DNA of 64,000 bases from an uncultured Methylomirabilota bacterium (lineage in GTDB: Bacteria; Methylomirabilota; Methylomirabilia; Methylomirabilales; 2-02-FULL-66-22), in the NCBI GenBank assembly GCA_963705305.1, contig OY970067.1, positions 3,200,001 to 3,264,000 on the forward strand, given 5' to 3'. How positions within the stretch are numbered: position 1 is the stretch's first letter; each line of letters opens with the position of its first letter. The position numbers and the translations under genes are program-made. Positions 2,700 to 51,731 of this stretch are shown here, one piece after another. Under the pieces are notes generated by a model that was given only the letters and a program-made list of their open reading frames with translations, did no database searches and was not told the origin of the DNA.

Positions 2700-3008
2700 T
2701 CACCTGACGTTCCCCCAGAGCCGGGCGAACGCCGTGCGTCCGCTGCTCCACATCAGACGGAACATGGCCAGGAAGGCCTGGGCCAGGACGCGGAGGATCA
2801 CGAGCATCGTTGTGAGGGCCGCGAGTACTGCCGCCTGGGCCAGGAACCTCGATGGGGCCCAGAAGAGGGCGCCAACCAGGAGGAATCCGCCGAGGAGGAT
2901 CCAGGAGCCGACCGCCGGCGCGAGGGTGGGCCAGAGCCAAGAGGACACCTGGTCGCCGGCAACATAGAGCAACCCGCAGAGCACGAGATAGAGCAGACAG
3001 CCCATCAC
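2700..3008 (-). CDS. Small integral membrane protein translationally coupled to the coupling protein
   Basis: 102 aa with about three hydrophobic segments; start overlaps the T4CP stop. Confidence 0.6.
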   Translation of the reverse strand: MMGCLLYLVLCGLLYVAGDQVSSWLWPTLAPAVGSWILLGGFLLVGALFWAPSRFLAQAAVLAALTTMLVILRVLAQAFLAMFRLMWSSGRTAFARLWGNVR

Positions 3009-4849
3009 GCCTCCGCTTCGCTGTCGGCTGGCTCCGCCCGCTCCGGCTCAGCGGGGGGTGCCGGGGCCGGTCCGAGGATGGTGAAGTCCTGCGTCTGCCG
3101 TTTCCGGGTCGGCCGCTTGCCGCCGGTGCGCGTGGTGCTCGTCCTCGAGGCTTCCCCGGTCCCGTTCCCACCCCCCTCGGACACGTTCGCCGTTTTGGGA
3201 AGCGCCTCGATCAGGTTGAGCCCGCGCGGGTTGTTCCGGGGCACCGGCTTCATCTCCTCGTGCCCCGCCTCCGGCAGTTCCAGATACACCAGTTGGGCAT
3301 CCTCGTGCAGGCTCGCCCCAGTGTCCGGGTCCTGGATGTACAGGACCGCCTGGCCCGTTCGCTGATGCATGAGCTGCTCCGGTCGGATTACGTAGTCGTA
3401 CCGCTCCTGGACGCCGTGCGATTCGCTCTGGCCGTTGTTCGACCGATCTGGCATCGGGCTCACCCACGCCGCCGAGCGGCTCTGGGTGCGGGCCGTCATC
3501 CTCGAGCGGAAGAGCGCGATCTCCTCGCCGACGGTCTTGGCCATCGTCTCCGCGGTGGGGAAGTCCCCGAGCTTCATGATGACCTTCGTCGAGCAGTTTC
3601 CAAAGATGAAGTCCTGCTGCTGCCTGCTGGCGATGGCGAACCCCGAGGCCACCTGGGCAGCGGCCACGAGTCCCACCCCCGCCGAGCGGGCCTGCTCGAA
3701 GAGCCGCTCGATCCCCTCGACGTTCATGTAGGCGGAGGCCTCATCCATGAGGACGAGGTAGGGGATCCGCGGACGGTCATTCCGTTGCTGCAGGGTCCCG
3801 ACCGCCTGTTTCAGGTCGGCGATCAGCATCCGCGCCATGGCGGTGGCGGTCTCGGTCTCCGCCAGGATCGGGAGCGCCACGTAGACGATGAGCCCGTGGA
3901 GGAGGGCGTCGAGGAGATCGAGGGATGGGCCGGTGTGGTTCATGATCTTGCCGAGCTCGCCCCAGGCGTACGCCGACACGTAGGAGGGGGCCCCGCCCAC
4001 CATTTTCTTCATGCGCTCGATGTCGAGTTGCCCCTTCTGGTTCCGGTAGTTCGCCAGGAACGAGGTCAAGGCCGAGTGCTCCTCGGTCCCTGGCGGACAG
4101 GTGCGCTCGAGCCAGAGGAGGGCATCTGCCGAGGTAAGGGCCTGGTACACGTCGTTGAAGGTGATCAGTGGATTGATCCGAATCATGGCCCCGAGGATGG
4201 CGTGGAGCGCGGTATTGGCCTGCCCGCGCCAGAAGTCCGCCTCACCCTTCCCCGCGCTCGCGCCCCACAGGGCCATGACCCGGGAGAGGATCTCTTGCAG
4301 CCGGCCGCGGAGCAGCGGGTTCCAGGTGTGCGAGATGGTGGGATCCGGGGGCCAGAGCACCCGGATGTCCTCGACCCGGTCCGCGTGCCGGCAGAGCGCT
4401 AGGACGGTTTGCAGGGACTCCTTGTCGACCTTGGCGTCGATCATCAGGCAGCCCCCGCCACGCTGGATCTGCTGGGCGAGCAAGGAGAGGAGCAGTTGCG
4501 TCTTGCCGGAGCCCGAGCTTCCCAAGACCAGGGTGTGATACTGCAGGCTATGGTTACTGAGCCGGATCCACCCTGCCGTCTTGCTCCAGCCCACGGTAAG
4601 GGCATCCCCCACGGGCGCCGGCGTGCGCGGCTTGCGCATGTCGTTACTCACTCGGTCGGACACCAAGCAGAACGCCCCGAGGCCCCCCGCAAGCAGGAGC
4701 AGGATCAGGAAGAGGGTCTTCAAGGGCAGGTAGAGGCTGCCTAGCGCCGCGTGGAGAAGGACGAAGCGAGGCAGGGGGAACAGGGGAAAGCCCGTCGCCA
4801 GGGCGAGGAGGCCAAAGAAGCACCAGGTCCACCGACTTGAAGAGCCCAT
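3005..4849 (-). CDS. traD: Type IV coupling protein (TraD/VirD4-like)
   Basis: Two N-terminal TMs, Walker A GSSGSGKT, IDAK, Walker B LMDEAS, FEQARSAG and GNCSTK. Start moved to ATG 4849 (MGSSSRW). Confidence 0.9.
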   Translation of the reverse strand: MGSSSRWTWCFFGLLALATGFPLFPLPRFVLLHAALGSLYLPLKTLFLILLLLAGGLGAFCLVSDRVSNDMRKPRTPAPVGDALTVGWSKTAGWIRLSNHSLQYHTLVLGSSGSGKTQLLLSLLAQQIQRGGGCLMIDAKVDKESLQTVLALCRHADRVEDIRVLWPPDPTISHTWNPLLRGRLQEILSRVMALWGASAGKGEADFWRGQANTALHAILGAMIRINPLITFNDVYQALTSADALLWLERTCPPGTEEHSALTSFLANYRNQKGQLDIERMKKMVGGAPSYVSAYAWGELGKIMNHTGPSLDLLDALLHGLIVYVALPILAETETATAMARMLIADLKQAVGTLQQRNDRPRIPYLVLMDEASAYMNVEGIERLFEQARSAGVGLVAAAQVASGFAIASRQQQDFIFGNCSTKVIMKLGDFPTAETMAKTVGEEIALFRSRMTARTQSRSAAWVSPMPDRSNNGQSESHGVQERYDYVIRPEQLMHQRTGQAVLYIQDPDTGASLHEDAQLVYLELPEAGHEEMKPVPRNNPRGLNLIEALPKTANVSEGGGNGTGEASRTSTTRTGGKRPTRKRQTQDFTILGPAPAPPAEPERAEPADSEAEA

Positions 4850-5304
4850 CGCGCGTCTCGCCTTCGCTCCGTGCGGCCCGGGGAAGAGCTGGCCGCTGTT
4901 CGCAGGCAAGCATAGGCAATGCCGCGGCGGTGTCGAGAGCATCTTTCTGCAGCCATCTGACGAATGGGCCGCTTCTCGATGACAGCTCTCGGTGACGGCC
5001 TTCGAAGATGCAAGAAATGTTTCGCGCCCATCTGGCGCGCGGTTCCCGCTTCCGTTGCTACGCTGGAGACCGCGCTGAAGGGGTAGAAGTAGAGAAATTA
5101 CGGGTGCGCTTGGGGTGGAGGTCTGATGGAAAACACGAACTCCTCCGGTCTGCCGCGCGATTTCATACGAGACCGGAGGCATTAGCTAATAGTTGCAGAG
5201 CTTCTCTAGCTCCGAGGTCGCGGCGACGATCGACGCGACCGTGCGGCACGATACCGAGATGCGGGTGGAGAAGAACTTCGTGGGATGTCCGTGTAGTCTT
5301 GCTG

Positions 5305-6102
5305 TCAAAGGTCCGCCGATCTTCTGGCGATGAGCGCGCTGACCTCGACGATTTCGCTGAATTCGCCAGCCGGGGAGAGGCGCGCCAACCCTGCCCGCAG
5401 CGCTCGCTCGAAGGCGGGGCGCCGCTCGCCGAGGGTATCGGGGGACGTGGTGGAAGACGAATAGGCGCGGCCGACGATCGCGTCCGCGTCCAGCCGGCGC
5501 GTGACGATCACGCCGTGACGTTCGAGCGAGGAGAACGCGGAGCGCAGCAGCACCACCTCCTGCGGCTCTTCCAATTGCTTCCGCTCCCGGCGCTCGGCGG
5601 CGACCGCGGGCACGAAGTCTTCGCGGAGCCGCTCGACGAGGGCCCGCCAATCCGCGCCGTGGGTCGCAATGGGCTTGTCACCGAACAGGGCAATGCCCCC
5701 GCCAGGCTCGATCAGGTGATCGAGGACCGCGAGCGTGGCGTCGCGATCCATCCAGTGGAACGAACGACCCAGGGTCGCGAGCCGGAAGCGGCCGAGCGTC
5801 AGAGTGAGGTCGTAGGAACTGCCCTCGATCGTCTTCACGGAGACCCCCGCCGCTGCGGCGCGCTCGCGGGCGGCCGCGAGCATCCTCGGCTCGGGATCGA
5901 GTGCGGTGACGGTCGCCCCGAGGCGCGCGAACGCGATGGCAAGCTGACCCGGCCCACAGCCCAGATCGAGCACGGGACTCGCGGATTCAAGCCCGAGCCG
6001 GTCGGCGACGAGGGCGATGAGCCGGTTCGGGTACGGAACGCGATACCGCAGGTAGTACGGGACCGTGGATTGGAAGCGGTGGGGGTCGAAGGGAACCGTC
6101 AT
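5305..6102 (-). CDS. Class I SAM-dependent methyltransferase
   Basis: Motif I VLDLGCGPG, SFHWMD, and N-terminal YYLRYRVPYP. Confidence 0.9.
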   Translation of the reverse strand: MTVPFDPHRFQSTVPYYLRYRVPYPNRLIALVADRLGLESASPVLDLGCGPGQLAIAFARLGATVTALDPEPRMLAAARERAAAAGVSVKTIEGSSYDLTLTLGRFRLATLGRSFHWMDRDATLAVLDHLIEPGGGIALFGDKPIATHGADWRALVERLREDFVPAVAAERRERKQLEEPQEVVLLRSAFSSLERHGVIVTRRLDADAIVGRAYSSSTTSPDTLGERRPAFERALRAGLARLSPAGEFSEIVEVSALIARRSADL

Positions 6103-6131: not shown

Positions 6132-6653
6132 CTATGTAGACATCAGATCATACGGGATGTCCCCGAGAAGCTTTCCCCAGCGGCTCACGGCCTTCGTGAC
6201 CTGGTCCAGGGCCGTGCAGTACCCCACCGGGTCGAAGCCATCCGGATCGCTACGGAGGAAGGTCAACATGGCTTCGCACTGTTCTGCGATCGCTCCGACG
6301 AGGGCCCGGGCCCGCTGTCGCACCGGGGCCGCCGGATCGATGAAGCGTGCGGGCAATTTTGCCCGGGTGAACTCAATCCGCTCGCTCCCGCCTCTTGCGT
6401 TGTACACCTCGTCGGTTGCCAGCCGTAATCCATTCTCGAAGGCCCCTTCGAATTTCATCCAGAGTCCGCTGAACTGGGCGGCCGTGAAGTCCGGGTGCTC
6501 CTCCATGAACTTGTGGAGCTCGAACAGTGGGGCCATGGTCTTCTCGATCACCTGGATGGCCCGGGTCCGGTGATTCACCTCCGGCTGGCCGGAGGTCCCC
6601 CGGGTCTCTGCGATAACCTCCGGGGTAACGGCAGACACATTGCGTGTTTTCAT
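6132..6653 (-). CDS. Hypothetical protein
   Basis: Clean ORF with AAAGAGAGGG RBS before ATG 6653; no recognisable motif. Confidence 0.55.
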   Translation of the reverse strand: MKTRNVSAVTPEVIAETRGTSGQPEVNHRTRAIQVIEKTMAPLFELHKFMEEHPDFTAAQFSGLWMKFEGAFENGLRLATDEVYNARGGSERIEFTRAKLPARFIDPAAPVRQRARALVGAIAEQCEAMLTFLRSDPDGFDPVGYCTALDQVTKAVSRWGKLLGDIPYDLMST

Positions 6654-7046
6654 GGCCCTCTCTTTGTATCTTACCGCAATCGGCTTGGAAAGCATAAGCT
6701 GGTGCACCGAGGGCAAGAATCCAACAAAGCTAAAAGGGGCAACTTGTCCGGTCTCCGCGTCGAGCTAGTAGCCGGATCCATCACGCCGCTGGAGGAACCG
6801 GCAGTGTCAGTCCGGTGGTCAGTGTCCTATTCTGATCGAAAGCGACCCGGCGCGCTGCATCCCCCCGTACCGAATCAGCCATTTTCCGGTTTTCACTTCA
6901 GATCCATCAGTCACTTCGGGGAGATGGACCATTCCATTCATCTTTCCGTAGAAAAAGTCAGCATAGCTATCGGCCCTCTTGGTACTTCACTCGAGTCAAT
7001 AATGCGTCAAGAAGAGCACTGTAATCCTCTTTCGAGAAAATAATAC

Positions 7047-7076
7047 TTTACAATGTTGCCCGCAACGTTATATAAG
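7047..7076 (+). promoter_or_regulatory. Sigma70-like promoter with a dyad in the spacer
   Basis: TTTACA (7047-7052), 18-bp spacer, TATAAG (7071-7076). Imperfect palindrome AATGTTGC-CC-GCAACGTT lies between them, in an AT-rich divergent intergenic region. Confidence 0.4.
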
Positions 7077-7177: not shown

Positions 7178-7513
7178 ATGGCAATGCATCAAGCAGTGGC
7201 TGTGCTAGAGGCAGGGGCGATCGGACCAGTGGAGAACACGGACAGGCGGCTCATGCTGCTGTCGGAGGTCGCAGAACGGGTAAACGTGGACCGGCGTGAT
7301 CTGAACGAGTGGATCAATCTGGGATTGCTCGATCCACGACCGATTGAGGTCGGGCTCAAGGGTCGGCGGACCATCGGGCCCGGGAGGGCCTCAATCCCGT
7401 ACCGCCCATTGGGCAAAGGGTATCTGGTGTCGGAACTCGACGGAATCCGTCAGCAAGTGGAAGCGCTAAAGCAACGCCGGACGTGGCAACCCTACAAGGA
7501 GGCTGCCCAGTGA
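7178..7513 (+). CDS. MerR/excisionase-like HTH protein
   Basis: LSEVAERVNVDRRDLNEWINLGLLDP matches the MerR/Xis-type HTH pattern; GGAG RBS. Confidence 0.55.
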   Translation: MAMHQAVAVLEAGAIGPVENTDRRLMLLSEVAERVNVDRRDLNEWINLGLLDPRPIEVGLKGRRTIGPGRASIPYRPLGKGYLVSELDGIRQQVEALKQRRTWQPYKEAAQ

Positions 7514-8100
7514 TCCAGGCCCTGACGATCCTCTTCTTCGCCATGGCGGCCCTCCTGGTCTTCTCCGTCTGGCAGCGCGCCCAGGCACAGATCGCCGCCG
7601 ATGTCCCCAAGGGGTATCGGGTGTTCTCGGCCGATCTGGGGCACGACACCCGACTGGACAGCCGGGGCGCCATCCTGCTGCGCGACAATGAGTGGGGGAT
7701 CACGGGAAAGGTAGACCTTCTGCTCCAGAACGTCGCAACCCGTGCCGTGATTCCGGTAGAGTACAAGGCGGCGTGGCACGGATTTGAGCCCGGGAAGGCC
7801 CAGCCGAGCCACATCCACCAGCTCGCCACAGCCCTGGTCCTCTGCGAGGGAGACAGCCGGGTGGGGCAGTCGCCGCCTGAGGGGTGGATTCGCTACATTG
7901 ACGAACGCGGGGCCCTGGTCGCCGCCGGCGAGGTCCACATTCAGAACACGCCGGAGATCCGGGAGCGGGTCATCGCGACCGCCCAGCGGATGCGCCGGGC
8001 CCTCGTGACCAGCGAGGAGCTCCATCGCGATCACCGCTCCGTGGCGAAGTGCTGCCGGTGCGCTCTGCGGGACACCTGCGGCGAGGTCCTGGTCGCCTAG
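7510..8100 (+). CDS. Cas4-like PD-(D/E)XK nuclease, C-terminal half, with N-terminal TM
   Basis: GTG overlaps the upstream stop. TM LTILFFAMAALLVFSVW, then GITGKVD, PVEYK, HQLATA and C-terminal CCRCALRDTC (three Fe-S cysteines). Confidence 0.8.
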   Translation: MIQALTILFFAMAALLVFSVWQRAQAQIAADVPKGYRVFSADLGHDTRLDSRGAILLRDNEWGITGKVDLLLQNVATRAVIPVEYKAAWHGFEPGKAQPSHIHQLATALVLCEGDSRVGQSPPEGWIRYIDERGALVAAGEVHIQNTPEIRERVIATAQRMRRALVTSEELHRDHRSVAKCCRCALRDTCGEVLVA

Positions 8101-8136
8101 CGGAGAAGAGACGCCATAAATGGACGCTGGAAGCAG

Positions 8137-8415
8137 ATGGAGAAGAGCAATCGGGCGCCGAAGCCCCGGCCCGACCGCCCGGATATTTCCGCCAACGAGA
8201 TCCAAGACTTCTTGTACTGCGCCCGAAGTTGGTGGTTGCGCCGGGTCCAACAGGTGGCCATCAAGACCCCCGAGATGACGGCCGGGACCCAGGCCCATGC
8301 CCTGGTCGGACACCTCGTGGCCGAGACCGTCGTCCTCGAGCGCGTGGTGCGGGCTTGTACCGGCTTGGCCGTGCTGATCGCGGGGGCGATCGGCTACCTG
8401 TGGCTCGTCCGGTAA
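8137..8415 (+). CDS. Cas4-like N-terminal fragment (first Fe-S Cys) with C-terminal TM
   Basis: ISANEIQDFLYCARSWWL and GTQAH match the Cas4 N-terminal S.....YCPR..W and G...H motifs, followed by TM GLAVLIAGAIGYLWLV. Confidence 0.75.
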   Translation: MEKSNRAPKPRPDRPDISANEIQDFLYCARSWWLRRVQQVAIKTPEMTAGTQAHALVGHLVAETVVLERVVRACTGLAVLIAGAIGYLWLVR

Positions 8416-8439
8416 CCGGACCGGTACAAGAGAGATGCC

Positions 8440-8673
8440 ATGCCTCTCATCATGCTGTTGGCTCTACCGATCTGCGCGGTCGTTCTCGCCATTCGCACTC
8501 ACCGGCAGGCAGTGAAGCGCGGCGAGGATCTCGGGGTCGTCGGGCTAGCTGTCCGGTTGTGGGCGTACGGTCAGGTCCTGGGGCCCCTGCTCCTCGGCTT
8601 GAGCCTCCTGGCCTATCTGATCGGGGTGGTCTGTTTCATGGATGGGCCGTCAGCCCCGAGACACCCCTGGTAG
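8440..8673 (+). CDS. Small membrane protein convergent on traG (possible entry-exclusion factor)
   Basis: 77 aa with 2-3 hydrophobic segments; last gene of the operon facing the traG 3' end. Confidence 0.5.
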   Translation: MPLIMLLALPICAVVLAIRTHRQAVKRGEDLGVVGLAVRLWAYGQVLGPLLLGLSLLAYLIGVVCFMDGPSAPRHPW

Positions 8674-8695: not shown

Positions 8696-8735
8696 CGAAT
8701 CCCCTCCGCCTCATCGGGAGGGGATTCGGGTTTTC
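8696..8735 (+). terminator. Hairpin terminator between the convergent operon and traG
   Basis: 12-bp stem CGAATCCCCTCC/GGAGGGGATTCG followed by a short T run. Confidence 0.55.
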
Positions 8736-8815: not shown

Positions 8816-11800
8816 TCAGAACGGCAGGAATCGCTTATAGAACGGCTTGTACCCGCCATCTTGCCCCTTGACGCCTGCCACGACGTTCTCAGCGACTCGG
8901 ACATCCGCATCGGACTTCAGCGCCCCAAGCGTCTGCGGCTCCTGTGTGAGGCCCTCGCGCATGAGGGCCTGGCGGCTCTTCATGGCCTCCGCGCTTGGCA
9001 CGGCGTGGCCGCCGGGGGAGCTGCCCGGCTCGCCCGGGAGGTGTGGGTGACCCGGGGCCGGATGGGGCTGGCTGCTGTCCGTGGCGTGAGGGTGGACCGG
9101 GTGCGGTTTGGAACCCTTGGGATTCTGGGTCGCGTGCGCGAGGGCCGTCGTCGGTGCTGGATCGCCGGTGGGCATCAGCGTGCTGCCCGAGAGCACGGGG
9201 GCACGAACGGCCCGGCCGAAGGCCGAGAGGGGATCCAGTGCCGCCGGATGGTCAGCCGGCGAGGGCGGCGCCCCCGGGGTGGTGAGTGTCGTGTGCACGC
9301 CCTGGAGCGTGGTCCGTTGCGCCTCAACGTCGCGTTCGATCCGCTGCAGGGCCTCCAGCCCCTGGGGGTTGGCCTTCAGGGCCTGCTGGGCCAGCTGGCC
9401 AAGCGCTTCGCGGCGGTTCGGGTCGAGGAAGAGGTTTCGCATCTCACCGTAGAAGCGGGTGACCGCCTCCTGCCCCTGCTCGGTCGTGCGGGCCGCGTCG
9501 AGGCTCCCGTATTGCGCGCGGTAGTGCTGGTCCCAGTAAAGCAGGGCCATGTCGGTCTCCCTGGACATCGACAGGGTTACCGAGGCCGCCTGGGTTCGCT
9601 CCAACTGCTCCCGGGCCGACCGCTCGGCAGACTGCGCGTGGTCCACCGAGTTGATGGCGCTTGCGGCCTGGTCGAAGCTATAGCGCTGATCGTGGCTGCT
9701 GGCGATCTGGGATCCTTCTGCGAGGGCATCCCGGAGGCTGCGGTCGCGCGCCACGGACCGCGCGAAGGCGTTGTCGAAGCTGCGGGCCTGGGTCTCGTTC
9801 AGCGTGAAGGCGCCCATAGTCTGCCCGTTCTTGGACGCGGTGACCTGAAGCTGGCTGGTGGCTCCGGTCCCGAGGACGGAGAGGCCGAACGACATGCCGT
9901 CTTGCGCGGCCAGCGACCGGACGCTGCTCTCGCTTTCGGTGTTGGCCATGGCCTGCTGCAGCGCATACCCCACGTGTTTGGAGGTGACGCGGGTGATCGC
10001 GTCTGCCAGCCCGCTCGAGGCGGTGTGGGTCTTGCTCACGTCCTCGGACTGAAGGCGGTGGACCAGGTCGCCGATGGCGAGCCCGATGGTCCGGGCGGCG
10101 CCCTGCGTGGAGCGGTCCGTGTTCGCAAGGGCGGAGGCGTACCCGCGCCCTTGCGAGGCGGCCTCCGTTTGCAGCTGCTGGAGCCCCGCGTTCGGGGCGG
10201 AAAAGAGCGTGCCCTGGGAGGACACCGACAGGCCGAAGCCGTCGTCGGATCGGAGGTTCATGAAGGTTTCCCCCCCGCTCCCCCAAGTGGTGTTCCGCAT
10301 CCCGCTGCCGATCGCCGTGACCGAGACGGGAGTGCTCCGGGATCCGAGGATGTCGTGGGCCACCGGCTGCCCCATGGGGTCCGTCCCCAGCATCTGGGTG
10401 TGGGGCACGAGGTTCCGCTGGTCCATGGTCACGGTGCCGGCGTTCACGTTCCCCACCGCTGCCTCGACGCCCATCCCGGCGCCCGTGTGCCATGGCCCGT
10501 GCTGCACGACCTTGGTCATGGCGTACGAGCCCCCGAAGATCATGCCGCCGAGGAGCATGACGCCGACGGCCACCGGGAACCCAGAGGCCGCATAGGCATA
10601 GTTGAAGGTGTTCGTGACGGGCTGGGTGGCGGCCACCGACATGCCCCAGTCCATCTGGTTGCTGTAGAGCCCCGCCTTCCCCGCCTGCATGTAGAGGATC
10701 CGGTTGGCGAAGACGTAGGCCAATGGCCAGAGCTGGAGCCAGAGTGCATTGCCGAGGACCTGGGGGAAGATCCGGGGCATGACGATGATCAGCGGGATCC
10801 CAAAGAGGAGGAAGCCGTAGAAGAGGAACTCAAGGGTCGCGTGGAAGAAGGGGAGGATCTGCTGGATCATGAGGCCCGTCGTGATCCACGCGGAGGTCTG
10901 CTGGGCCTCCGCGGCACTGATGGCCCATGCCGTGAGGACCCCGTTTTGGCTGCTGAGGGCGGCGTTCGCCTGGATCGAGGGGATGAGCTGGTTGGCCGCG
11001 AAGCGGACCTTCAGGAGATCCACGGCATTCTGGCTGAGGCCGAGGACGTCCTGGGCCGCCGTGTCGATCGCCGGCAGGACCTGGGTCGTGTCCGTCTTGC
11101 CGATGGTCTGACCGATGATGGCCAGGAGCTGCGGGTCTTGGGCCGCCTGGCCGAGGCGCGGCAGGATGATGCTATCGAAGGCCTCCGGGCAGCGCTGGTC
11201 CTCGAGGGGCTCGGCGCAGCCATCGGGGAGCCCATCGCTGTTGCACTGGGAGGGGAGGAGGATCGGGATGGCCGGGTTCGTGCCCCCGAGCATCGCCTCG
11301 GCCGTCTTCGCCTTGACGATCTGCTCGACCGTCGTGTGGCCGCTCTGGACGTCCGGGATGATGCAGAGCCGGATGTACGCGTCCAGGTCCGTGGCGAGGT
11401 TCAGGTCGATCAGGGTCGCGTCCAGGGTCGTCTGCACGACGCGGGGGCCCCACCCCAGGCCGGACTCCGTGAACCTCCCGTAGTAATCCACCGGGTAGAT
11501 GGCCTGCTCGATTTTCTCGGCCAGTTGTTCCCCGAAGAAGCTGCTGGCGTGGCCGATCACCGCGATGGGGAAGGGGACCCCGGAGACGAGGTCGGTGCTG
11601 AGCGCCACGCGGTCCACGATCGCCACCGTGGTCTGGAAGCTCGGGTTGCAGAGGATGCCGACGATCCCAGCCGTGAGCGCCACGTGGGGGATGGCCAGGA
11701 GGGCCTGCTGGCCCCCCAGGGCACTCGGGATCGCGGCAAACAGGCCGGCGAGAAGCGCCACCAGTCCCGCTACCTTCATGGCCGAGGAGAGGCCACCGTT

Positions 11801-11974
11801 CTCGCTGGCGAACAGGGCAATGCCCTGGAAGGCGCTCTTGAGGAGCTCGCCGTTGCCGTAGGTGGTGACGTCCCAGACGTTCGCCGCGGACGCCGGCGTG
11901 GGGAGGGCGAGCAGGCCGATCGCGAGGATCGGGAGGGCCAGCCCGAGGCTCCCGCGGATCGGTGCGCGCCTCAT
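8816..11974 (-). CDS. traG: F-type conjugal mating-pair stabilisation protein TraG
   Basis: TraG_N start WDVTTYGNGELLKSAFQGIA, WLQLWP TM motif, Ser/Gln-rich C-terminal half; follows traH. Confidence 0.9.
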   Translation of the reverse strand: MRRAPIRGSLGLALPILAIGLLALPTPASAANVWDVTTYGNGELLKSAFQGIALFASENGGLSSAMKVAGLVALLAGLFAAIPSALGGQQALLAIPHVALTAGIVGILCNPSFQTTVAIVDRVALSTDLVSGVPFPIAVIGHASSFFGEQLAEKIEQAIYPVDYYGRFTESGLGWGPRVVQTTLDATLIDLNLATDLDAYIRLCIIPDVQSGHTTVEQIVKAKTAEAMLGGTNPAIPILLPSQCNSDGLPDGCAEPLEDQRCPEAFDSIILPRLGQAAQDPQLLAIIGQTIGKTDTTQVLPAIDTAAQDVLGLSQNAVDLLKVRFAANQLIPSIQANAALSSQNGVLTAWAISAAEAQQTSAWITTGLMIQQILPFFHATLEFLFYGFLLFGIPLIIVMPRIFPQVLGNALWLQLWPLAYVFANRILYMQAGKAGLYSNQMDWGMSVAATQPVTNTFNYAYAASGFPVAVGVMLLGGMIFGGSYAMTKVVQHGPWHTGAGMGVEAAVGNVNAGTVTMDQRNLVPHTQMLGTDPMGQPVAHDILGSRSTPVSVTAIGSGMRNTTWGSGGETFMNLRSDDGFGLSVSSQGTLFSAPNAGLQQLQTEAASQGRGYASALANTDRSTQGAARTIGLAIGDLVHRLQSEDVSKTHTASSGLADAITRVTSKHVGYALQQAMANTESESSVRSLAAQDGMSFGLSVLGTGATSQLQVTASKNGQTMGAFTLNETQARSFDNAFARSVARDRSLRDALAEGSQIASSHDQRYSFDQAASAINSVDHAQSAERSAREQLERTQAASVTLSMSRETDMALLYWDQHYRAQYGSLDAARTTEQGQEAVTRFYGEMRNLFLDPNRREALGQLAQQALKANPQGLEALQRIERDVEAQRTTLQGVHTTLTTPGAPPSPADHPAALDPLSAFGRAVRAPVLSGSTLMPTGDPAPTTALAHATQNPKGSKPHPVHPHATDSSQPHPAPGHPHLPGEPGSSPGGHAVPSAEAMKSRQALMREGLTQEPQTLGALKSDADVRVAENVVAGVKGQDGGYKPFYKRFLPF

Positions 11975-16070: not shown

Positions 16071-19000
16071 CTAGTTCTGCGGTCGGAGGGGGACGGTCAC
16101 CGGACCCAGGTCCAGCGTCGCGCCGGAGTTGTCCGTGGCATACAGGTGCACCGTCGCCGTCTCGGGCGGGCTGTTCACCGGAACCTTCAGCGACCAGCCT
16201 TGCCTCACGTCCACCTTGAGCTCCGGGACCACCCAGCGGCGGATCTTGACGCTGCCGTCCGGATCGAGGCCATTCGCAGAGCACCGAAGTGTCGCGCTTG
16301 CGGTGCCCACCTGGGTCTTGGTGCAGTCGATCGTGCCGCGGGGGACCATGTTCTCCGCCACGTCCACCGTCTGGCTTGCGGTGAGCTCCTTCCCGGCTGC
16401 CGTCTTGACGGTCAGGGCAAACGTGTGGGTCCCCGGCTGGGTTACGGTCGCGCGGTTCGGCGGCCAATGGAGCGCGATGCCGTCGGCGATCCACGTTGAC
16501 GTGGTGACCCGGTCTCGTGCGTCCAGCGCACCCGGCGGCACCGTGTACTTGAGGAGGTACTGCACCGGGGGCCGCTGGGCGCCACCGGAGCTGATCGTGA
16601 TGTATGGAGCGTCCGTGGGCGGCGCCTGGACCGTGATGTCCTCCGACCAGGCGAAGGAGCCACTCACCGTTCCGAGCACCGCGAGGGACACTCGATAGGT
16701 CCCGGGCTGCGTGAAGGTCACCGCGAAGTTTGTGGACCCGCGGGTGCTCTTGATCGGCGGCGCGCTCGGGTCCGCGAGGCTCACCGCCGTCCAGCTGATC
16801 GTGATCCGCTCCCGCTTCACCGGGCTCTGGAGCTCCGTCAGTCGATAGCGGTAGGTCGTCGGGGCGTACGGTCCGTCGATCCCGTACAGGAATGCTACTG
16901 CCTGCAGCAGCGGCTCATCGATCAGCAGGCTGGCACTCTGCGTCACCGGCGTGCCGTCCTGCAGCGTGCCGGTGAAGACCAGGCTATACTGCCCGCTAAT
17001 GTGCGGCGTTACCCCGTCCAGCAGGAAGCCACGCAGGCTCGTCTGGACGATGAAGGTGTTCGAGGTGGCATCGTAATGCAGCGGGAGCGTGGTACTCGGC
17101 CCGTTCACCATCGCCTGCCCGTCGGCCGTGCCGGTCAGGGTCAGGGTCAGCTTGGCCGAGCCCTCATCGAAGGCCGACGGGACCCCGACGCCCTCCGCGT
17201 CGAGGCCTGGTACCACGATGGTCACCCGCACATCCACCGGATAGATGGTGGGGGTGAGGTGGTACTTCCTGGCGTCGGGCCGGCTGTCGTTCGGCTCCGA
17301 GCTATACCCCGCGTTCAGGAACTGCACGGCGAGGTCCAGGTAGGGGGGTACCTGCGCCGGGATGACCACCTCGGACGGCTCCGTCTGCGTCCGGGTCTGC
17401 GACCCCTGCGGGGTGAAGTAGCCCACCACCTGATACGTGCCGGGGGCCGTGTAGGTGCAAGTCACGCTTTGACCCGCCAACATTTGGGCCGGGTGGGTGC
17501 CGCAGTCCACGAGGTACTTCGAGGCCGGGAGTTCCTCGGGGAAGGTCAGCGGCACCAGGATTGTCCGCGGCCCCGTCTGGGCGAGCGCGCCGACTTGGAG
17601 GCTAATGGGCGCCCCGCTGAGGCTCGTGTCCACCGCACCGCTCAAGGCCACGTTGCCCTGGGTCCGACCGCTGAAGGCCACGTGGTAGTCCCCGGGTGCA
17701 TTCAGGAGCGTCTGCCCGGTCAGCGTAAGGCCGTCCGCGCTCAGCGTCAGGGTCACGGTGATCGCCGCCATCTGCGGGCGGGTGATCGTGAGGACCGACG
17801 TTTGCCCGAAGATCGGGTCCACGATTCCCACGACGGCTGGTGGCGCGAGGGTCACCGTCGCGTCCAGCACCGCCGGAAGGGTCGTGCTGACCGTCGCCCT
17901 GTTGGCTGGCTGACCATTGAGGGCGATCGTGATCTCCTTGACGGTGACGGGCACGGAGGCGACCGACACCGTCAGCGGCGCCGTGGCGACCCTCCGGCTC
18001 CCGTTCGGATCCGTGAACGCTCCGGTCACCGTGGCGCTGCCCGCCTTCGCGTAGGTGCACTCCCCCGTCAGGCCCGAGAACCCCTGAGCCGGGCGCGTGC
18101 CGCAGTCCGTGGTCGCATCGGCGCTCGGGGCATCCGCGGGCCAGTGGATGGGCACGCTGACGTTGGCCCCGTCTTGCACTGGCGGATCGGCCTGCAGCGT
18201 GATCGTGGCCAGGGTGAGCGGGAGCGCCACGCTCGTGGTGAGGCTCGATCCGCGCTGCGTGTGCCCGTCCAGGGTGAAGACGTAAGCCCCGAATCCGGAC
18301 GGGGAGAAGCTCGCCGTATAGTGCAGCGCGTCGGTCCGTGTCGCGGTCAGCCGCGCGATCTGGGTTCCGTCCTTGGTCACCACCATCTTCGATGTGCCGA
18401 GATTCAAGCTGTCCGGGACGCCCACACCGTCCGCTGCGGTGAACGTCACCGGGAGTCCGATCGTCTGCGGGAGCGTATACAGGGTCCGCCCCGCCAGCGG
18501 CTGGTTGCCGAGCATCGGCACCAGCGCGGGCTGGTTCAAGGCCAGGGCGGGGATCGTGACCGTCAAGGGGGCTGTTGCCGTGTTCGGTGCCCCCACCGGA
18601 TCCGTGAACCTTCCGGTCACGGTGTAGCTTCCGGCCTGGGTGTAGAGGCAAGTACCTGTCGGCCCGGTCACGGTCTGGGTCGGGCTCGTGCCGCAGTCCG
18701 CCACCATCTCCGTGACCACAGGGTCCGCCGGCCAGGTGATCGGCACCGCCACGGTCCACCCAACGCGCTGCTCGGCCACGCCAGCGGTCAGCGTCACGGG
18801 GGTCAGCGTGAGCACCAGGCTCCCCGTAGTGGTGACCGTGGCGCCGCTGCCGGTCAGCCCCAGGAGCGTGAAAGTGTAGGTCCCCGACGCCGTGAGGGAC
18901 GCCGACGCCGTGTAGTGAAGCCCATCGATGCGGGTCAGCGTGAGCGAGCCGGCCGAGACCCCGTCCTTCGTCATCGCGATCGCGGACGAACCGAGGTTGA

Positions 19001-22000
19001 GTTCATCCAGGATGCCAATCCCCTCGGGCTGGGTCAGCGTCACGGGAAGTGACACCGGCGTCGGAAAGGTATAGACGTGGACCGATGCCGCGGGCTGCCC
19101 GTTGATCAGCGGCACGAGCGGCATGGTGCCCGGGCTGAGGGGCCGGACCGTCACCGTGGCCGGTGCGGTCGCCACATTGGCCACCCCGCGGGGATCCGTG
19201 TACCTCCCCGTGATCGTAAAGCTGCCGGACTTCGTATAGACGCACTGCCCGTCCCCGTCCAGTGTCTGCAGCGGGGTCGTGCCGCAGTCTACCGTCCGGT
19301 TGGCCACGGTCGGGCTGGCCGGCCAGTGGACGCCCACGGCCACGCTGGCGCTCGGGTCCTTCTGGGCCACCGGCTCGAGGGTGAGGGCCAGCGTATTCAC
19401 CGTCAGCGTGACGCTGGCATCTGCGTGCAGGCTCTGCCCGCCAGTCGTCTTGGCCAGCAGGGTGAAGGTGTAGGTCCCGCTCGCCGTCAGGGAGGTCTGG
19501 GCCTGGAACGTCAGGCCATCCTGCTTGCTCAAGGACAGGGCCGGAGCGGGAATCCCGTTCCGGGTCACCTGGATGCTCGAGCTGGCGAGATCCACTGTGT
19601 CCGCGAAGCCGACCGTGCCGACCTTCTGGAAGCTGATCGGGAACGTGACCGGGACCGGTGTGCTATACACCGTCAGCGGCGCGGTCGCTGCCACCCCGTC
19701 CACGATGGCGACGAAAGGTTGCGCGGGGTCGAGCTGGAGCGGCAGGGCGGGGATGCTCAGGGTGCTCGTCCCCGCCGGGACGTTGGGTGTCCCCGTCGCG
19801 TCCGTGAACGTGCCACTGATGGTGTAGGTCCCGGCCGCGCCGTACTCGCAGCGCACACTCGCACCCGTGCGCTTCTGGGCAGGCGTGGTGCCGCATTCCA
19901 CAATTTGGTTGGTTGTGACAGGCGTCGTCGGCCACTGCACCGGGACGCTGACCGCCTGCGTCGTCTCGGTCCAGCTTGGGGCTCCGACGCTCAGCGTGAC
20001 TGGGCTCAGACTGAGGGTGAAGGTGACCGGTGACGTGCTCACTGCCTGTCCGCTCTGAGTGCGGGCGTTCAGCATGAGGGTGTAGGTCCCTGGCGCGGTC
20101 AGGCTGGCACTTGTTGTGTAGCTCAGGTCCTGCGTGTTTGCGAGCGCGAGGGTGCGCGGCGTTTGCCCCGTCTGCGAGAGGATCATCTTGGCGTTCGCGG
20201 CATCCAACGGGTCATAGACACCGACCCCGTCCGCCGGCGCGAACATGAGGGCAATCGCCAAGTTGGCCGGCAGGCTGTACACGAGGAGATCCGTCTTGCC
20301 ATTGATCGTGTACGTGATCGGAGTGACCGTCAGCGCCTGCCACGGCACGTCCACCGTGAGCGGCGCGGTCGGGACGTTCGGGGTCCCCATGGCATCCGTG
20401 AAGCGGCCGACCACCGTGTACGACCCGCTTTTGGTGTAAAGGCAGGTGGCGCTCGTGCCCGTGGAGGTCTGGGGCGGGGTCGTGCCGCAGTCAATGCTCA
20501 GGTTGCTCGCGGCAAGGTCACTGGGCCACTCAATCTGGACGGTCACGACGCCCTTCCCCTGGGGATCGTGCTTCGTGAGCGTGATCGCGGTGGAATTCAG
20601 GGTGAAGGTCTGGGACGTTCCCACCGCTTGGCCCGTCAGGGTGTAGCCGCTGAGCGTCACCGTATACGCCCCGGCAGAGTTGAGAGCGGCCGTGCCGTCT
20701 GGCGTGGCCAGGGCGTACAGGTAGGTCACCCCGTCATTGCTCACCGCCGTGAGGGGCAGGCTCTGCGCCGGTTGCCCCGTTGGCGCGATCACCACGCGGC
20801 TCCGGTTGAGATCCAGCAGATCCGGGACCCCTGGCGTACTCGGGAGCGTGAGGGTCAGACCGAGACTGAACCGGGCGGGCAGGCTGTAGACCTGGACCGT
20901 CCCCGTCGCGGCGTGGGCGTTGACCGTCGGGGAGAAGGCGGTCAGGCTCCCCGCGACCGCGGGCACCGTGATCGGGACCGAGGGTGCCGTGAAGCTCTGT
21001 CCGTTCAGGACATAGGTCCCCGTGATCGTGTAGGTGCCCGGCGCGGCATAGGTGCAGACATCCGGGAGTACCGTGAGCACCGCCCCCTGGCCGCAGGTGA
21101 CACTCCCACTGGTCGGCGCGCCGCCGGCCCAGGAGACTTGCGTCGTCACCGAGGAGCCGGCCGCCTGCAATGGTGTCGTCGCGATCGTCACGGGTTGCGC
21201 GATGATGAAGAGCAGGCTGCCCGCCGTGCCACCCCCCGGACCCACCGTGCTCACCCCGATGGTGGCCGTCCCCGCATTCTTGAGGCTCGCCGAGGGGATC
21301 ATGGCAGTGAGGGTGGTCCCACCGCCGCTCACCGTGCTGGTCAGGGAGGAGCCGTTCCAGGTGATGCTCGATCCCGTCAGCACGCCGCCGGAGACGAAGT
21401 TGGCCCCGGTGACCATGACGGTGACCCCGGTGGAGCCTGCCAGCGCGGTGGTTGGCGAGAGGATGGTCACCGTGGGGCTCGGGTTCGCCACGGTGAAGGT
21501 GGCGCTGTTCGATGTGCCTCCGCCTGGCGTCGGGTTCGTGACGCTCACCGAGACCGACTGCGCCGTGGCGACATCTGCGGCCGTCAGGGTCACCTGAATC
21601 TGCCCGCCGCTGAGCCATTGCAGTGAGGTCCCGGATTTGGTCTGGCCCCCCCAGTTCACCGTGCTACCACTCACGAATCCGGTGCCATTGATGGTGATGG
21701 TGGGTGGCGGACTCCCCACCAGCACCGAGGGAATGTCGAAGGAGGTCACCGTCGGCACCGGGTTCTGCACCACGAAGGTGATCGTCCCCGCCGACTGCGT
21801 CCCCTTCGCGGGATTTCGCACGCCGACCTTGTGCGTCCCTGGCGTGGCCAGATTGGCGCCGGGGATGGTCGCGGTGAGCGACCCGTAGTTGTTCCAGGTC
21901 GTGGAGGTCAGATCCACGCCGTCCCAGGTGACGATCGCGCTCGGGTCGAAGCTGCTCCCGGTCACGGTCATCGTCACGCCCGAGCTTCCGGCCACAGCCG

Positions 22001-23213: not shown

Positions 23214-23547
23214 TGGCGGTCCTCCTTTGTGCTTTGTGCAGACCCCACCGCGACCAATATGATCGGGGTGGGGACGACAATCGCTGCCAGGTGGTCGGGG
23301 GAGAGATCCGCGCCAACGGGTGAGCAGGGTAGCCGTCCTGCAGTGATGTGGGAGGCGGGCTCCTGCCGACGGGTGATCCCGGGTGGCCTCCGTGCGACGC
23401 CGATCGACCGTTGTCTGCAGCATCGGGCCACCCTGCATCCTGATAAACCGCCAGCCGGTCTGAGGGGACCCGGTGGCGGGATCCTGACGTTACATCCAGA
23501 GCCTCCGGCTGCGGGGCATCCCCCGCGGCTCCGGACCGTGTGTCCCT

Positions 23548-50016: not shown

Positions 50017-51231
50017 TTAGCTCGCGGCTTCGCGCGGCGTCAGCTGTGCCTGGGGGAAGCGGTGTCGAGCGCCGAGGACATACGCCAGAATCCGATCGCT
50101 CGTTACCCATTGGCGGCCGAGGCGCTCCGCCACCTCGCCCGTCGTCGAGCTGCCGCCGAAGAAGTCCACCACGAGGTCCCCCGGACGCGTGAGGAACTTG
50201 ATGAAGAACTCCGGGAGCGCTGCGGGGAAACGCGCCGGGTGCGGGGGGAGGCCTTCGCCGCGGCATCCCTGCAGGTACTGATTGTTCGAGACCGTGTTGG
50301 GGGCGGTGAGCAAATTCCCCGGAATGGCCCCGCCGTTGTCTACGCCGAATGCACTGTCGGCGAACCTATAGCCGCTGGGGCGGTTCGCCGTCCGTTCGCC
50401 CCCCTCCGCGAGCCGCGCCTGCATCCGTGCCGAGTACGGGGCAAGGACCCCCCGGTTATCGGCATACGGGTAGGCATCCCGGGCCAACCAGTAGATCTGC
50501 TCGAGACTGGGCTTCACGCGCACGCGGCGAATCGTCACCCACTCGGCCGGGGCCGGCAGCTTCGACGGATTGAGCCACGCGAACCGCTGGCACAGTCGGA
50601 GGCCAAGTTCGTCTACCAATCGAAGCACCAACCGCTCCTGGTACAGGCTCAGGGTGGGTTGCCCTGCCTCCCACACATCACCTAGGTTCAGCACGATGCT
50701 TCCGTCGGGTGTGAGCTTCTGCGGCCACTGGGCGGCCAGCCGCAGGAACCAGCTCAGGTACTCCTGGGCGGAGAGGTTACCGTATGCCTTCTGTCGCGTG
50801 AGGGGATACGGGGGTGAGGTGAGGATCAACTGGACGCTGCCGTCCTCCACGTACCCTACCGCGTCCTCTGCCGCGGCCCAGAGGGCGGCGCCGTGCTCCG
50901 TGACGAACACGGTGATGACCACACCGGGTCGGCTCTCCCTGAGCTGCTTCCGGCCCTTCTCCGTGATCTCCCACGCGCCCGGCTCGATCGGCCGCAGGAG
51001 GCCAAGGAACTTGCCCCGCTGCTGTGCCCAGCGCACGGAACGGGCAAACGTGTTGATCGTCCCGGCGGAGGCCAGCGTCTCGGTGGCCGTGCGGATCGCC
51101 GCGGAAACGCCCGTTCGTTCGGCAACCGCGCTGTAAAGATCCGCCGTTCGGGCGCGGCCACCGTTCGCGGCGATGGCTTCGAGGACCGGGAGGAGGAGTT
51201 GGCCTTGAGATGGCGAACTGTCTAGTGACAT
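50017..51231 (-). CDS. Beta-class N4-C/N6-A DNA methyltransferase fused to an Mrr N-terminal winged helix
   Basis: LLPVLEAI...VRWA...GAWEITEKG (Mrr_N); TSPPY, HPARFP and DFFGGS. Confidence 0.88.
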   Translation of the reverse strand: MSLDSSPSQGQLLLPVLEAIAANGGRARTADLYSAVAERTGVSAAIRTATETLASAGTINTFARSVRWAQQRGKFLGLLRPIEPGAWEITEKGRKQLRESRPGVVITVFVTEHGAALWAAAEDAVGYVEDGSVQLILTSPPYPLTRQKAYGNLSAQEYLSWFLRLAAQWPQKLTPDGSIVLNLGDVWEAGQPTLSLYQERLVLRLVDELGLRLCQRFAWLNPSKLPAPAEWVTIRRVRVKPSLEQIYWLARDAYPYADNRGVLAPYSARMQARLAEGGERTANRPSGYRFADSAFGVDNGGAIPGNLLTAPNTVSNNQYLQGCRGEGLPPHPARFPAALPEFFIKFLTRPGDLVVDFFGGSSTTGEVAERLGRQWVTSDRILAYVLGARHRFPQAQLTPREAAS

Positions 51232-51718: not shown

Positions 51719-51731
51719 AGTTGGCGTCCGT

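Follow-up and report, generated by a model that had tools for sequence, protein, structure and literature searches.

A probable two-piece, membrane-anchored Cas4-type nuclease encoded in swapped order between traD and traG of a Methylomirabilota conjugative element

The established part of Cas4 is that of a soluble accessory protein in CRISPR spacer capture. In the window analysed here (the whole stretch of 64,000 nucleotides), Cas4-like sequence is divided between two neighbouring genes, each with a membrane helix, within a conjugative element. The first-pass annotation of this DNA described them as the halves of one nuclease in permuted gene order, with both membrane helices at the split point, and assigned the assembled enzyme a role in exclusion or defence. 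The locus raises two questions: whether the two genes together encode one enzyme, and what such an enzyme would do beside a conjugation machinery. All four open reading frames of the operon, here called genes A to D, exist as first described.

Gene B (7510..8100, + strand) encodes 196 amino acids, with a membrane helix at residues 2-20 followed by the Cas4 core and the cysteine motif CX2CX5C. Its GTG start and the stop codon of gene A overlap in the tetranucleotide GTGA, with AAGGAGG 6 nt 5' of the start. The NCBIfam cas4 model TIGR00372 was covered over positions 56-178 of 180 (E 1.1e-8), the 35.2 bits being below the curated cut-off of 65, and nine PADLOC Cas4 models were matched over their C-terminal two thirds; the Pfam search gave no match at E up to 1. 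The RecB-type catalytic motifs of Cas4 (D, ExK and Q) are all present on gene B, and in an alignment of 20 homologues D69, E84, K86, C181, C184 and C190 were invariant and Q104 nearly so. The AlphaFold2 model of gene B (pLDDT 78.9) had its best PDB fold matches among Cas4 chains, 7mi4 (E 4.8e-6) and 8d3l, and 7mi4 alone was matched in the PDB sequence search (E 0.004). Residues 2-20 form a hydrophobic 19-mer in the Kyte-Doolittle scan. The original description of B as a Cas4 core with three C-terminal Cys behind an N-terminal membrane helix was thereby confirmed in its motifs, cysteines and helix.

Gene C (8137..8415, + strand) encodes 92 amino acids that comprise a Cas4 N-terminal segment with C28 and H54 and a C-terminal membrane helix at residues 73-91, again a hydrophobic 19-mer in the Kyte-Doolittle scan. 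It matched TIGR00372 at about positions 5-48 (E 1e-3, 18.9 bits against the curated cut-off of 65), PADLOC Cas4 models over about the same positions (E 6e-5 and weaker), and positions 2-50 of Pfam PDDEXK_1 (E 2.5e-4, the 21.5 bits being below the cut-off of 22); the PDB sequence search gave nothing significant for this gene. C28 and H54 were invariant among 15 aligned homologues. The metal ligands of SSO0001 are His62, Asp99 and Glu113 according to the part of PMC12501428 available to us, and H54 corresponds to His62 by model position, so that the metal-binding His falls on half C. Both genes match cas4 profiles in complementary regions, the division seen on TIGR00372 recurring on nine PADLOC Cas4 models, and the profile match, the two invariant residues and the terminal hydrophobic segment agree with the proposal that C supplies the N-terminus missing from B and ends in a membrane helix.

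The relation of the two genes to each other became clear from single-chain relatives. Against a 9-sequence alignment of these, hhalign placed C at positions 3-52 (probability 98.4, E 5e-15) and B at positions 120-272 (probability 99.9, E 1.7e-32), which bears out the claim of two halves of one Cas4-type domain in permuted gene order. Between the C-like and the B-like part the single chains carry two hydrophobic segments (about eight in P0071), and single-chain relatives pass PF01930, e.g. P0134 with 44.7 bits (cut-off 22.7). Since the hydrophobic segments of the split proteins are at B 2-20 and C 73-91, both helices are located exactly at the split, as had been stated. The permuted order also occurs in one natural chain, P0050, in which a B-like part (43 % identity, E 1e-44) is followed by a C-like part (42 %, E 5e-13). 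A search for longer proteins holding gene C scored none, a weak negative result as P0050 does hold a C-like part. The four Fe-S cysteine positions are conserved, C28 on C and C181, C184 and C190 on B, and the sequences support a composite active site and a composite Fe-S site, with His and the first Cys from C and the D/E/K residues and three Cys from B.

A model of the B-C complex had an ipSAE of 0.76 (0.79, 0.72 and 0.76 in the separate runs), compared to 0.00 for the best of three controls. In the calibration, 116 of 157 solved complexes but 2 of 215 mismatched pairs attained this ipSAE mark; the complex was modelled on unpaired alignments with a ligand included, the ligand being outside the scope of that calibration. 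Partner pLDDT was at least 73, and at least 82 % of the contacts agreed between runs. In the modelled interface, residues 1-30 of B and 70-89 of C make helix-helix contacts, C28 lies against B 173-175, and residues 184 and 190 of B also take part. Modelling of the pair, which had been suggested as a check, supported binding with all controls passed, and placed C28 together with B 184 and B 190 at the interface. It is possible that the pass may simply reflect resemblance to solved Cas4 folds.

The soluble parts of B and C would both lie on the cytoplasmic face, judging from the Arg residues at the cytoplasmic ends of both helices, from the mere 1-2 residues past the opposite ends, and from the expectation that an Fe-S domain without a signal peptide remains inside. 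As each Cas4 half has a membrane anchor, the enzyme probably assembles on the inner side of the cell membrane. We are confident that B and C are two halves of one Cas4-family PD-(D/E)XK iron-sulfur nuclease, split in a membrane hairpin, swapped in order and assembled at the cytoplasmic face. The ancestor was most probably a single polypeptide in which a membrane hairpin separated the N-terminal Cys helix from the nuclease core; this chain would have been cut in the hairpin loop, and the gene order swapped. B would then be anchored by its N-terminal helix and C by its C-terminal helix, the helices would pair within the membrane, and the soluble parts would come together as a single catalytic domain facing the cytoplasm. 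Of the earlier suggestion of a membrane nuclease acting on DNA, the binding of the halves (by model) and their predicted location on the same face could be retained, whereas neither an action on incoming or transferring DNA nor the exclusion or defence role follows from these results.

In the window B and C are in-frame and only one TAG and 12 codons apart, as might be the case with a Cas4 gene that had been broken, either as a pseudogene or by an assembly artefact. Such an origin is nevertheless very hard to believe. B and then C occurred as separate frames in 18 of the 18 loci holding both, i.e. with the core half first and the small half downstream, and the frames differed in 8 of these. 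Each half has kept its own membrane helix, dN/dS was 0.12-0.37 in close pairs, and an ordinary Cas4, if broken, would put its N-terminal piece first and not second. A broken gene or read-through was rejected, as B and C share a frame in just 10 of the 18 loci and a helix is present on each half. The database homologues, 30 of B and 18 of C, were all separate small proteins; with these numbers and dN/dS values of 0.11-0.37, the B-C pair is far beyond chance. Purifying selection was seen on all four genes in close comparisons (0.11-0.37), gene A having values of 0.15-0.17 against L020 and L021 and gene D the lowest of the four (0.11-0.17).

The best family and fold matches of B and C are the Cas4 nucleases (TIGR00372 / PF01930 / COG1468; SSO0001 4IC1, type I-C 8D3L, Geobacter Cas4-Cas1 fusion 7MI4). 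They share with these the D, ExK and Q motifs, the metal-ligand His, and one N-terminal and three C-terminal Cys (CX2CX5C). Unlike Cas4, they are two proteins in swapped order with a membrane helix on each, both halves score under the curated cut-offs, and the setting is a conjugative element. A CRISPR-associated Cas4 was considered and rejected. The Cas1 search gave 0 matches in the whole genome, with the control positive in 7 of 14 genomes, and the five tandem repeats of the window include no CRISPR-like array, in agreement with the earlier observation that the window has neither cas1 nor a CRISPR array. B-C is therefore at most a solo or MGE-type Cas4. Solo Cas4 and MGE-Cas4, likewise Cas4-family genes beyond CRISPR loci and on mobile elements, have been surveyed, and one Cas4 clade is tied to conjugative plasmids of Burkholderiales (PMC5704561, in the part available). 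The roles of many Cas4 genes outside CRISPR loci are open according to the accessible sections of PMC5704561 and PMC13621843. In the main text of PMC5704561, 'transmembrane', 'split' and 'permut' have 0 occurrences and 'membrane' one, and no title describing a membrane-anchored or split Cas4 was found in a literature survey that covered titles. The swapped order of the Cas4 halves and their fixed place in a conjugative backbone are new. The concept of a restriction-fold nuclease tethered at the membrane where foreign DNA enters is shared with Shedu-type systems, some variants of which are membrane-anchored PD-(D/E)XK defence nucleases. Shedu belongs, however, to a different PD-(D/E)XK subfamily, and PADLOC gave only Cas4-type matches and no Shedu match for B and C.

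Single-chain relatives with the inserted membrane hairpin are widespread, archaea included. The best 150 relatives of B comprise 109 short proteins, 95 of which have a hydrophobic segment at the start, and 41 long ones, of which 27 are single chains with the Cys helix first. Poseidoniia, Methanosarcinales and Thermoplasmatota account for the named relatives, whose annotation goes no further than Cas4; the archaeal single chains form large clusters, e.g. one of 122 members in Poseidoniia. The split form was strong in just 3 of 251 genomes of the phylum, always on integrated elements. A tblastn search of 72,556 plasmid records with B found no close relative, only one 31 % match, and viral contigs searched with the short-form alignment A4 contained no relative. 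One of the weaker phylum matches to B (L010-L015), L012, turned out to be an ordinary soluble Cas4-like protein and was discarded.

The operon was said to start with an HTH gene and to end with a small membrane protein. Both reading frames are there and gene D does have two hydrophobic segments, while the HTH matches of gene A are weak. Gene A (7178..7513, + strand) encodes an excisionase/MerR-like HTH protein of 111 amino acids, and its stop overlaps the start of B. Its matches were to HTH_17 (E 0.011) and MerR_1 (E 0.079) in Pfam, to PADLOC mad1 (E 3.6e-4) and to a PHROG excisionase (E 0.0036). Homologues of A were found directly 5' of B in eight loci (L018, L019, L020, L021, L022, L024, L025 and L028), that in L018 being limited to 15 C-terminal residues, and L016 had a weak A-like match (E 5.7e-5). 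Gene D (8440..8673, + strand) is the last gene of the operon and faces the 3' end of traG. It encodes 77 amino acids with two predicted membrane helices (Kyte-Doolittle segments 1-19 and 46-64). No family match was obtained for D in Pfam, NCBIfam, PADLOC or PHROGs, and the best score in the protein atlas search was 0.85 (below 0.9), to unnamed clusters. D is located 3' of C in the window and in 13 related loci, its homologue in L024 and L033 being 170 amino acids long, and it is a candidate third subunit or exclusion-type protein. Upstream of A, a promoter-like site (7047..7076, + strand) consists of TTTACA, 17 nt and ATATAA, with the palindrome GTTGC-CC-GCAAC in the spacer. All 5 aligned upstream regions retain the promoter-like motif (TTGACA in relatives), the palindrome and the A+T-rich hexamer, and the site, which was not flagged by a consensus promoter scan, is a candidate promoter and operator of the A-D operon.

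The A-D operon is flanked by traD and traG in a Methylomirabilota element of the F type (TraI/TraD/TraG). The coupling protein gene traD (3005..5182, - strand), identified by family matches in Pfam and NCBIfam, and the conserved orf194 (6132..6716, - strand) are divergent from the operon, and traG (8816..11974, - strand), with a TraG_N domain (PF07916, E 3.9e-40), is convergent with it. A methyltransferase insertion between traD and orf194 (5305..6102, - strand) was seen in the window only. In nine related loci traD is upstream and divergent as it is in the window, and orf194 is upstream in five. Downstream of D, a convergent traG is present in the window and in four loci; it adjoins D likewise in L005 and L022, and extra genes intervene in L024 and L033. 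Neighbours of the related loci (traD, traG, integrase) link the operon to conjugative and integrative elements, as anticipated. In L006 an integrase gene is directly beside B-C-D, and in L029 a response-regulator gene is located between integrase and operon. The operon is kept with the backbone, between traD and traG, across loci of just 45-60 % identity, but as all related loci were found via B, a claim of a fixed backbone gene is biased and its unbiased check comprises 2 genomes only. The genes A-D probably make up a self-contained operon with a fixed place in one family of F-type (TraI-TraD ... TraG-TraH) integrative conjugative elements in Methylomirabilota. Other arrangements exist: L026 has B without C or D, D accompanies B-C in L006 and L016 where traG is absent, a decayed copy has no tra genes within 10 kb, and the genome's second copy is decaying. 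The traG protein of the window has 23-25 % identity to its best plasmid matches (two matches). B-C as the relaxase was set aside, because orf687, a neighbour of traD, weakly matches an HD domain (E 6e-5), as do MOBH TraI proteins, and looks relaxase-like.

The role that we favour for B-C, although with somewhat less than even confidence, is that of a membrane-tethered barrier against incoming DNA. The nuclease would degrade rival conjugative, transforming or phage DNA entering at the membrane, tethering would hold it away from the chromosome, and D may serve as a TraG-facing, exclusion-type partner. Nucleolytic activity in the recipient is difficult to reconcile with the lack of an obvious means of telling related from unrelated DNA, and a 5'-3' exonuclease would be hampered by the relaxase that the transferred strand carries on its 5' end as it enters. 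The large archaeal clusters point to a general function in the cell more than to one in conflicts. Translational coupling to an excisionase-like gene and the nearby integrase in L006 and L029 would in turn fit expression in the donor cell. Ranked second, and seen as a possibility of clearly lower weight, is a function in the element's own DNA transactions, in which B-C would trim or resect DNA for transfer, establishment or recombination beside TraD and would be expressed where the element is activated, with gene A as an excisionase-type factor. The resemblance of A to excisionases, its overlap with the start of B and the integrase genes already mentioned agree with this, as do the position of the operon next to traI-traD in the window and nine loci and its retention with such a divergent backbone. 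However, the element already has the relaxase-like orf687, and conjugation systems are not known to depend on a nuclease of the Cas4 type. The operon also carries a promoter-like site of its own, with every tra gene lying on the other strand, and the decayed copy persists away from tra genes.

The wide occurrence of membrane-anchored relatives, including the short and single-chain forms among the best 150 and the archaeal proteins annotated merely as Cas4, would be expected if B-C shared a general DNA task of its non-mobile kin (repair, turnover or segregation) and was carried as useful cargo, with its proximity to traG being meaningless. Solo Cas4 genes evolve as ordinary cellular genes do (PMC5704561, in the part available), which is compatible with such a task. 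We consider this unlikely, since the split form was strong in so few genomes of the phylum and always on integrated elements, the traD-traG position is kept across divergent loci, and the second genomic copy is decaying, which is unexpected for a housekeeping gene.

Known entry exclusion systems offer a different comparison. In SXT/R391, traG and eex are a co-evolving functional unit according to the available parts of PMC2791158 and PMC11493245. The same parts did not state how eex is oriented towards traG in SXT/IncC elements, where the first-pass annotation had taken the two genes to be convergent. As in TraG-Eex (SXT/R391, IncC) and TraG-TraS (F), the gene of a small inner-membrane protein (D) is found beside traG of an F-type system. 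D has no sequence similarity to any family, and the known exclusion systems described in the available text of PMC2791158 and PMC11493245, in contrast to the B-C locus, contain no nuclease. In position, it is the small protein D that resembles an exclusion protein more closely than the nuclease does. D alone could then be the exclusion factor, an Eex/TraS counterpart acting on TraG, and B-C an unrelated fellow traveller. Besides the co-evolution of traG and eex in SXT/R391 and the location of D right at the traG 3' end, this would be in line with the purifying selection on D, stronger than on A, B or C, and with the co-variation of C and D (Spearman 0.60, 55 pairs) while B reassorts against C and D (0.24, 78 pairs). 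Absence of family similarity in four libraries, atlas scores below 0.9, and the presence of D with B-C where traG is absent (L006, L016) make it rather improbable. B-C might also act jointly with the TraG-facing D as a DNA-level exclusion and defence device, destroying single-stranded DNA that emerges from a rival's transfer pore, from competence machinery or from a pilus-dependent phage; we regard this as possible but doubtful.

A membrane-built, two-piece Cas4 in a conjugative backbone gives the question of non-CRISPR Cas4 function a concrete setting, namely DNA crossing a membrane. Should incoming DNA be the target of B-C, the pair would represent a novel type of gene-transfer barrier. If the exclusion device exists, it would add to exclusion a second layer, an enzymatic one, of which no example is known among conjugation systems, and would provide a first function, surveillance of membrane-crossing DNA, for the wider family of membrane-anchored Cas4 proteins. 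Apart from its function, the pair is a clean natural example of how a protein can be divided where a membrane hairpin had been inserted, its two genes afterwards changing places. As single-chain forms in both the ancestral and the permuted order survive elsewhere, it is useful for studying the evolution of split and circularly permuted enzymes.

The end of gene D and the stop of traG are 143 bp apart in the window. Between these convergent genes there is a terminator-like hairpin (8697..8727, + strand), an 11-bp G+C-rich inverted repeat followed by a short T run. A pattern scan missed it because the run has only four T, whereas RNA folding gave -32.4 kcal/mol with z = -3.07 (200 shuffles).

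The operon at 7178-8673 consists of four closely spaced open reading frames on the forward strand, of which the second and third match complementary parts of Cas4. Gene A (7178-7513, 111 aa) encodes a putative HTH protein, B (7510-8100, 196 aa) the Cas4 core half, C (8137-8415, 92 aa) the Cas4 N-terminal half and D (8440-8673, 77 aa) a small membrane protein. B starts with GTG, sharing GTGA with the stop of A, and AAGGAGG lies 6 nt 5' of this start. B and C are in one reading frame, with one TAG and 12 sense codons between them (8098-8139), as in 10 of 18 loci. Compared with most of the listed homologues, C of the window lacks 7-9 aa, and it has ATA where most of those appear to start. A promoter-like TTGACA-17-TATATA with a GTTGC-NN-GCAAC palindrome lies 5' of A and is kept in all five aligned loci, and a strong hairpin (z = -3.07) lies 3' of D. 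In two related loci, L024 (10937-11875) and L033 (672-1610), D has 170 aa, not 77, and a gene for an HU-type DNA-binding protein lies between D and traG.

B aligned with positions 56-178 of the 180 in the NCBIfam cas4 model (E 1.1e-8) and C with positions 5-47 (E 1e-3), at 35.2 and 18.9 bits, both well under the curated cut-off of 65 bits. The complementary coverage was repeated on nine PADLOC Cas4 models; B had no Pfam match at E up to 1. The AlphaFold2 prediction for B, with a pLDDT of 78.9, had the Cas4 chains 7mi4 (E 4.8e-6) and 8d3l as its nearest folds, followed by MGME1, SSO0001, AdnAB and ACE1. In a PDB sequence search B matched 7mi4 weakly (E 0.004), and nothing significant was found for C. 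Residues D69, E84, K86, C181, C184 and C190 of B were invariant among 20 homologues, as were C28 and H54 of C among 15. Because the invariant residues are divided between the two proteins, and given the metal ligands described in part of PMC12501428 for SSO0001 (His62, Asp99 and Glu113), the predicted active site and four-Cys site would each require both B and C.

The origin of the split was approached through relatives of B. A profile search with the B alignment over 1.84 billion representatives gave 408 relatives at E up to 1e-3, 89 of them at E up to 1e-10, and the best 150 of the 408 were sorted by a crude script based on motifs and hydropathy. Among these 150, 109 had at most 210 aa, 95 of which had a hydrophobic segment at the start. 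The Cys-helix motif came first in 27 of the 41 longer relatives, 13 had no recognisable motif, and in one (P0050) the motif was placed after the Cys triad. In the long relatives inspected, a Cas4 N-terminal segment was followed by two or about eight hydrophobic segments and then by the core; those named came from Methermicoccus, Methanosarcinales, Poseidoniia and Thermoplasmatota, are annotated as Cas4 and pass PF01930. When an alignment of nine single-chain relatives was used as the hhalign target, C was placed at positions 3-52 (probability 98.4, E 5e-15) and B at positions 120-272 (probability 99.9, E 1.7e-32). From this placement the B/C pair is best read as a single-chain membrane Cas4 that was severed within its membrane hairpin and whose two parts have exchanged places in the gene order. 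The first-pass annotation had taken 7510-8100 as a Cas4 core and 8137-8415 as its missing N-terminus, and both the model coverage and the hhalign placement bear this out, each half having its own Cas4 match. P0050, a 315-aa protein known from one database entry, has a B-part (43 % identity, E 1e-44) followed by a C-part (42 %, E 5e-13) and hydrophobic segments at both chain ends; it is, as judged from its sequence, a natural B-C fusion in permuted order.

Among the titles listed in literature searches, none describes a membrane-anchored or split Cas4, and the terms 'transmembrane', 'split' and 'permut' are absent from the main text (supplements apart) of a Cas4 phylogenomics paper (PMC5704561). 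What appears to be new is the order of the genes, with the two halves swapped, together with the natural fusion in permuted order and the constant position within a conjugative element.

Hydropathy scans located the helices proposed earlier at the start of B (2-20) and the end of C (73-91), and two hydrophobic segments in D. The soluble parts of B and C are both predicted to be cytoplasmic, because no more than 1-2 residues extend past the outer end of either helix, the other ends are flanked by Arg, and the N-terminal part of C (70 residues) is without a signal peptide and carries one cluster Cys. A model of B, C and a 4Fe-4S cluster, with unpaired alignments and the ligand outside the calibration, had an ipSAE of 0.76 (runs 0.79, 0.72 and 0.76), a mark that 116 of 157 solved complexes attain, versus 2 of 215 mismatched pairs; none of the three controls exceeded 0.00. 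Partner pLDDT did not fall below 73, and contacts agreed between runs to at least 82 %. The interface was helix on helix (B 1-30 with C 70-89), with C28 against B 173-175, B 184 and 190 in contact, and C 52-68 against B 69-70, 85, 87 and 103-104. The model supports binding of B to C, in line with the complex anticipated for the two halves; the model's memory of intact Cas4 folds may, however, account for the pass.

Divergent from the operon, on the opposite strand, are orf194, a methyltransferase and the coupling protein TraD. TraG (TraG_N, E 3.9e-40) and TraH are convergent with it, and their strand also carries a TraA-type pilin, DsbC, a lytic transglycosylase, TraF, TrbC and TraU. Adjoining traD is orf687, with a weak match to an HD domain, the kind of domain found in MOBH-type TraI relaxases. 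A gene for a tyrosine integrase is situated 12 kb ahead of the window. The tra genes and the integrase point to an integrated F-type conjugative element in a genome of 5.65 Mb that has relatives labelled Methylomirabilota. The class I methyltransferase (5305-6102, reverse strand) stands between traD and orf194 in the window only, traD being directly next to orf194 in related loci, and the same genome has a second copy, 99 % identical, at about 4.773 Mb. The transfer set (1-28065) looks incomplete, and the element may be a remnant: searches of the genome with PF11130 and TIGR02746 detected no TraC/VirB4-type ATPase, and the tra genes end at TraU (28065). Past TraU there are IS transposases and genes for multihaem cytochromes, cytochrome b/Rieske proteins and nitrite/sulfite reductase.

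Homologues numbered 30 for B and 18 for C, every one a separate small protein. B was matched in 10 of 251 genomes of the phylum, strongly in three only. All loci were fetched via B (one from the genome collection, two further genome loci and 19 metagenome loci), which biases the case for a backbone gene. B preceded C in all 18 loci holding both, and D followed C in the window and 13 loci. Three loci stop before C, L036 is a weak partial match only, and L026, which lacks both C and D, has a methylase and a ParB-like gene after B. A divergent traD lay upstream of the operon in the window and nine loci; the convergent traG reported for the window recurred downstream in four of these B-fetched loci. 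Downstream of the L016 operon there is instead an RDF-like gene, then RadC, a helicase and a DUF6094 methylase. In a stricter first look at the 251 genomes for TraG, this type occurred in two, both with B-C-D. With dS below 0.7, and leaving out the 15-codon match of A in L018 and the 20-codon match of C in L020, dN/dS was 0.15-0.17 for A (two full-length pairs), 0.22-0.29 for B, 0.34-0.37 for C (full-length pairs) and 0.11-0.17 for D.

Between the window and locus L016, identity was 52 % for B, 83 % for C and 90 % for D (dS 0.97, 0.34 and 0.40, respectively); against L006 it was 76, 50 and 59 %. Across locus pairs the Spearman coefficient was 0.24 for B-C (78 pairs) and 0.60 for C-D (55 pairs), descriptive values only since the pairs are non-independent. 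Descriptively, B appears to reassort against C-D (window 7510-8673 versus L016, L031, L006 and L032), a pattern that points to recurrent recombination within the short spacer between B and C and suggests that any B may pair functionally with any C. L006 is a second, decaying copy of B-C-D (G000:C1:1343815-1345084, i.e. 1.344 Mb), next to a tyrosine integrase and with an internal TAG in C and a truncated B match ending at residue 173-175. No tra genes lie within 10 kb of it; an SSB fragment, RadC, a UvrD-like helicase and a DUF6094 methylase follow. In another order of the phylum, a B-like match (G054:C76:3004-3384; L009, L017), 35 % identical and with two in-frame TAG codons, falls within an open frame of 569 aa (contig of 3.9 kb) and could be a pseudogene or something else.

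As to function, we tentatively favour a membrane-tethered barrier against entering DNA, because an active-looking nuclease is predicted at the inner membrane face, because it is kept in the conjugative backbone on the TraG side, where other F-type systems have their exclusion genes, and because the operon has its own promoter-like site, on the strand opposite the tra genes, and probably yields one transcript that takes in the gene of the small membrane protein D. In SXT and IncC elements TraG and the entry-exclusion protein Eex form a functional unit, according to parts of PMC2791158 and PMC11493245. That D alone is the exclusion factor seems unlikely.

Against a barrier, however, B-C has no evident means of telling DNAs apart, and the 5' end of the incoming strand carries the relaxase. 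A is excisionase-like, and an integrase stands beside or close to the operon in two loci: it directly adjoins B-C-D in L006, and in L029 one gene, a response regulator, intervenes. A part for B-C in the element's own DNA handling is a possible alternative, though a less likely one than the barrier. The large archaeal relatives, which also speak against a barrier, resemble ordinary cellular genes; a general membrane-DNA role is about as doubtful as exclusion by D alone. That B and C are simply a broken gene is highly improbable.

Elsewhere in the window, a 2455-aa protein within the tra block (16071-23438, reverse strand) has six 'choice-of-anchor Z' PGGG repeats (E 2.3e-61) and weak PKD/Ig-like matches, and may serve the mating apparatus as a giant surface adhesin. 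At 50017-53009 (reverse strand) an Mrr_N-domain DNA methylase adjoins a three-domain DUF4326-NADAR-cpYpsA (SLOG) protein, a pair resembling a defence island. A perfect tandem duplication with a 106-bp unit (2.0 copies, 100 % identity) was found at 60836-61047.
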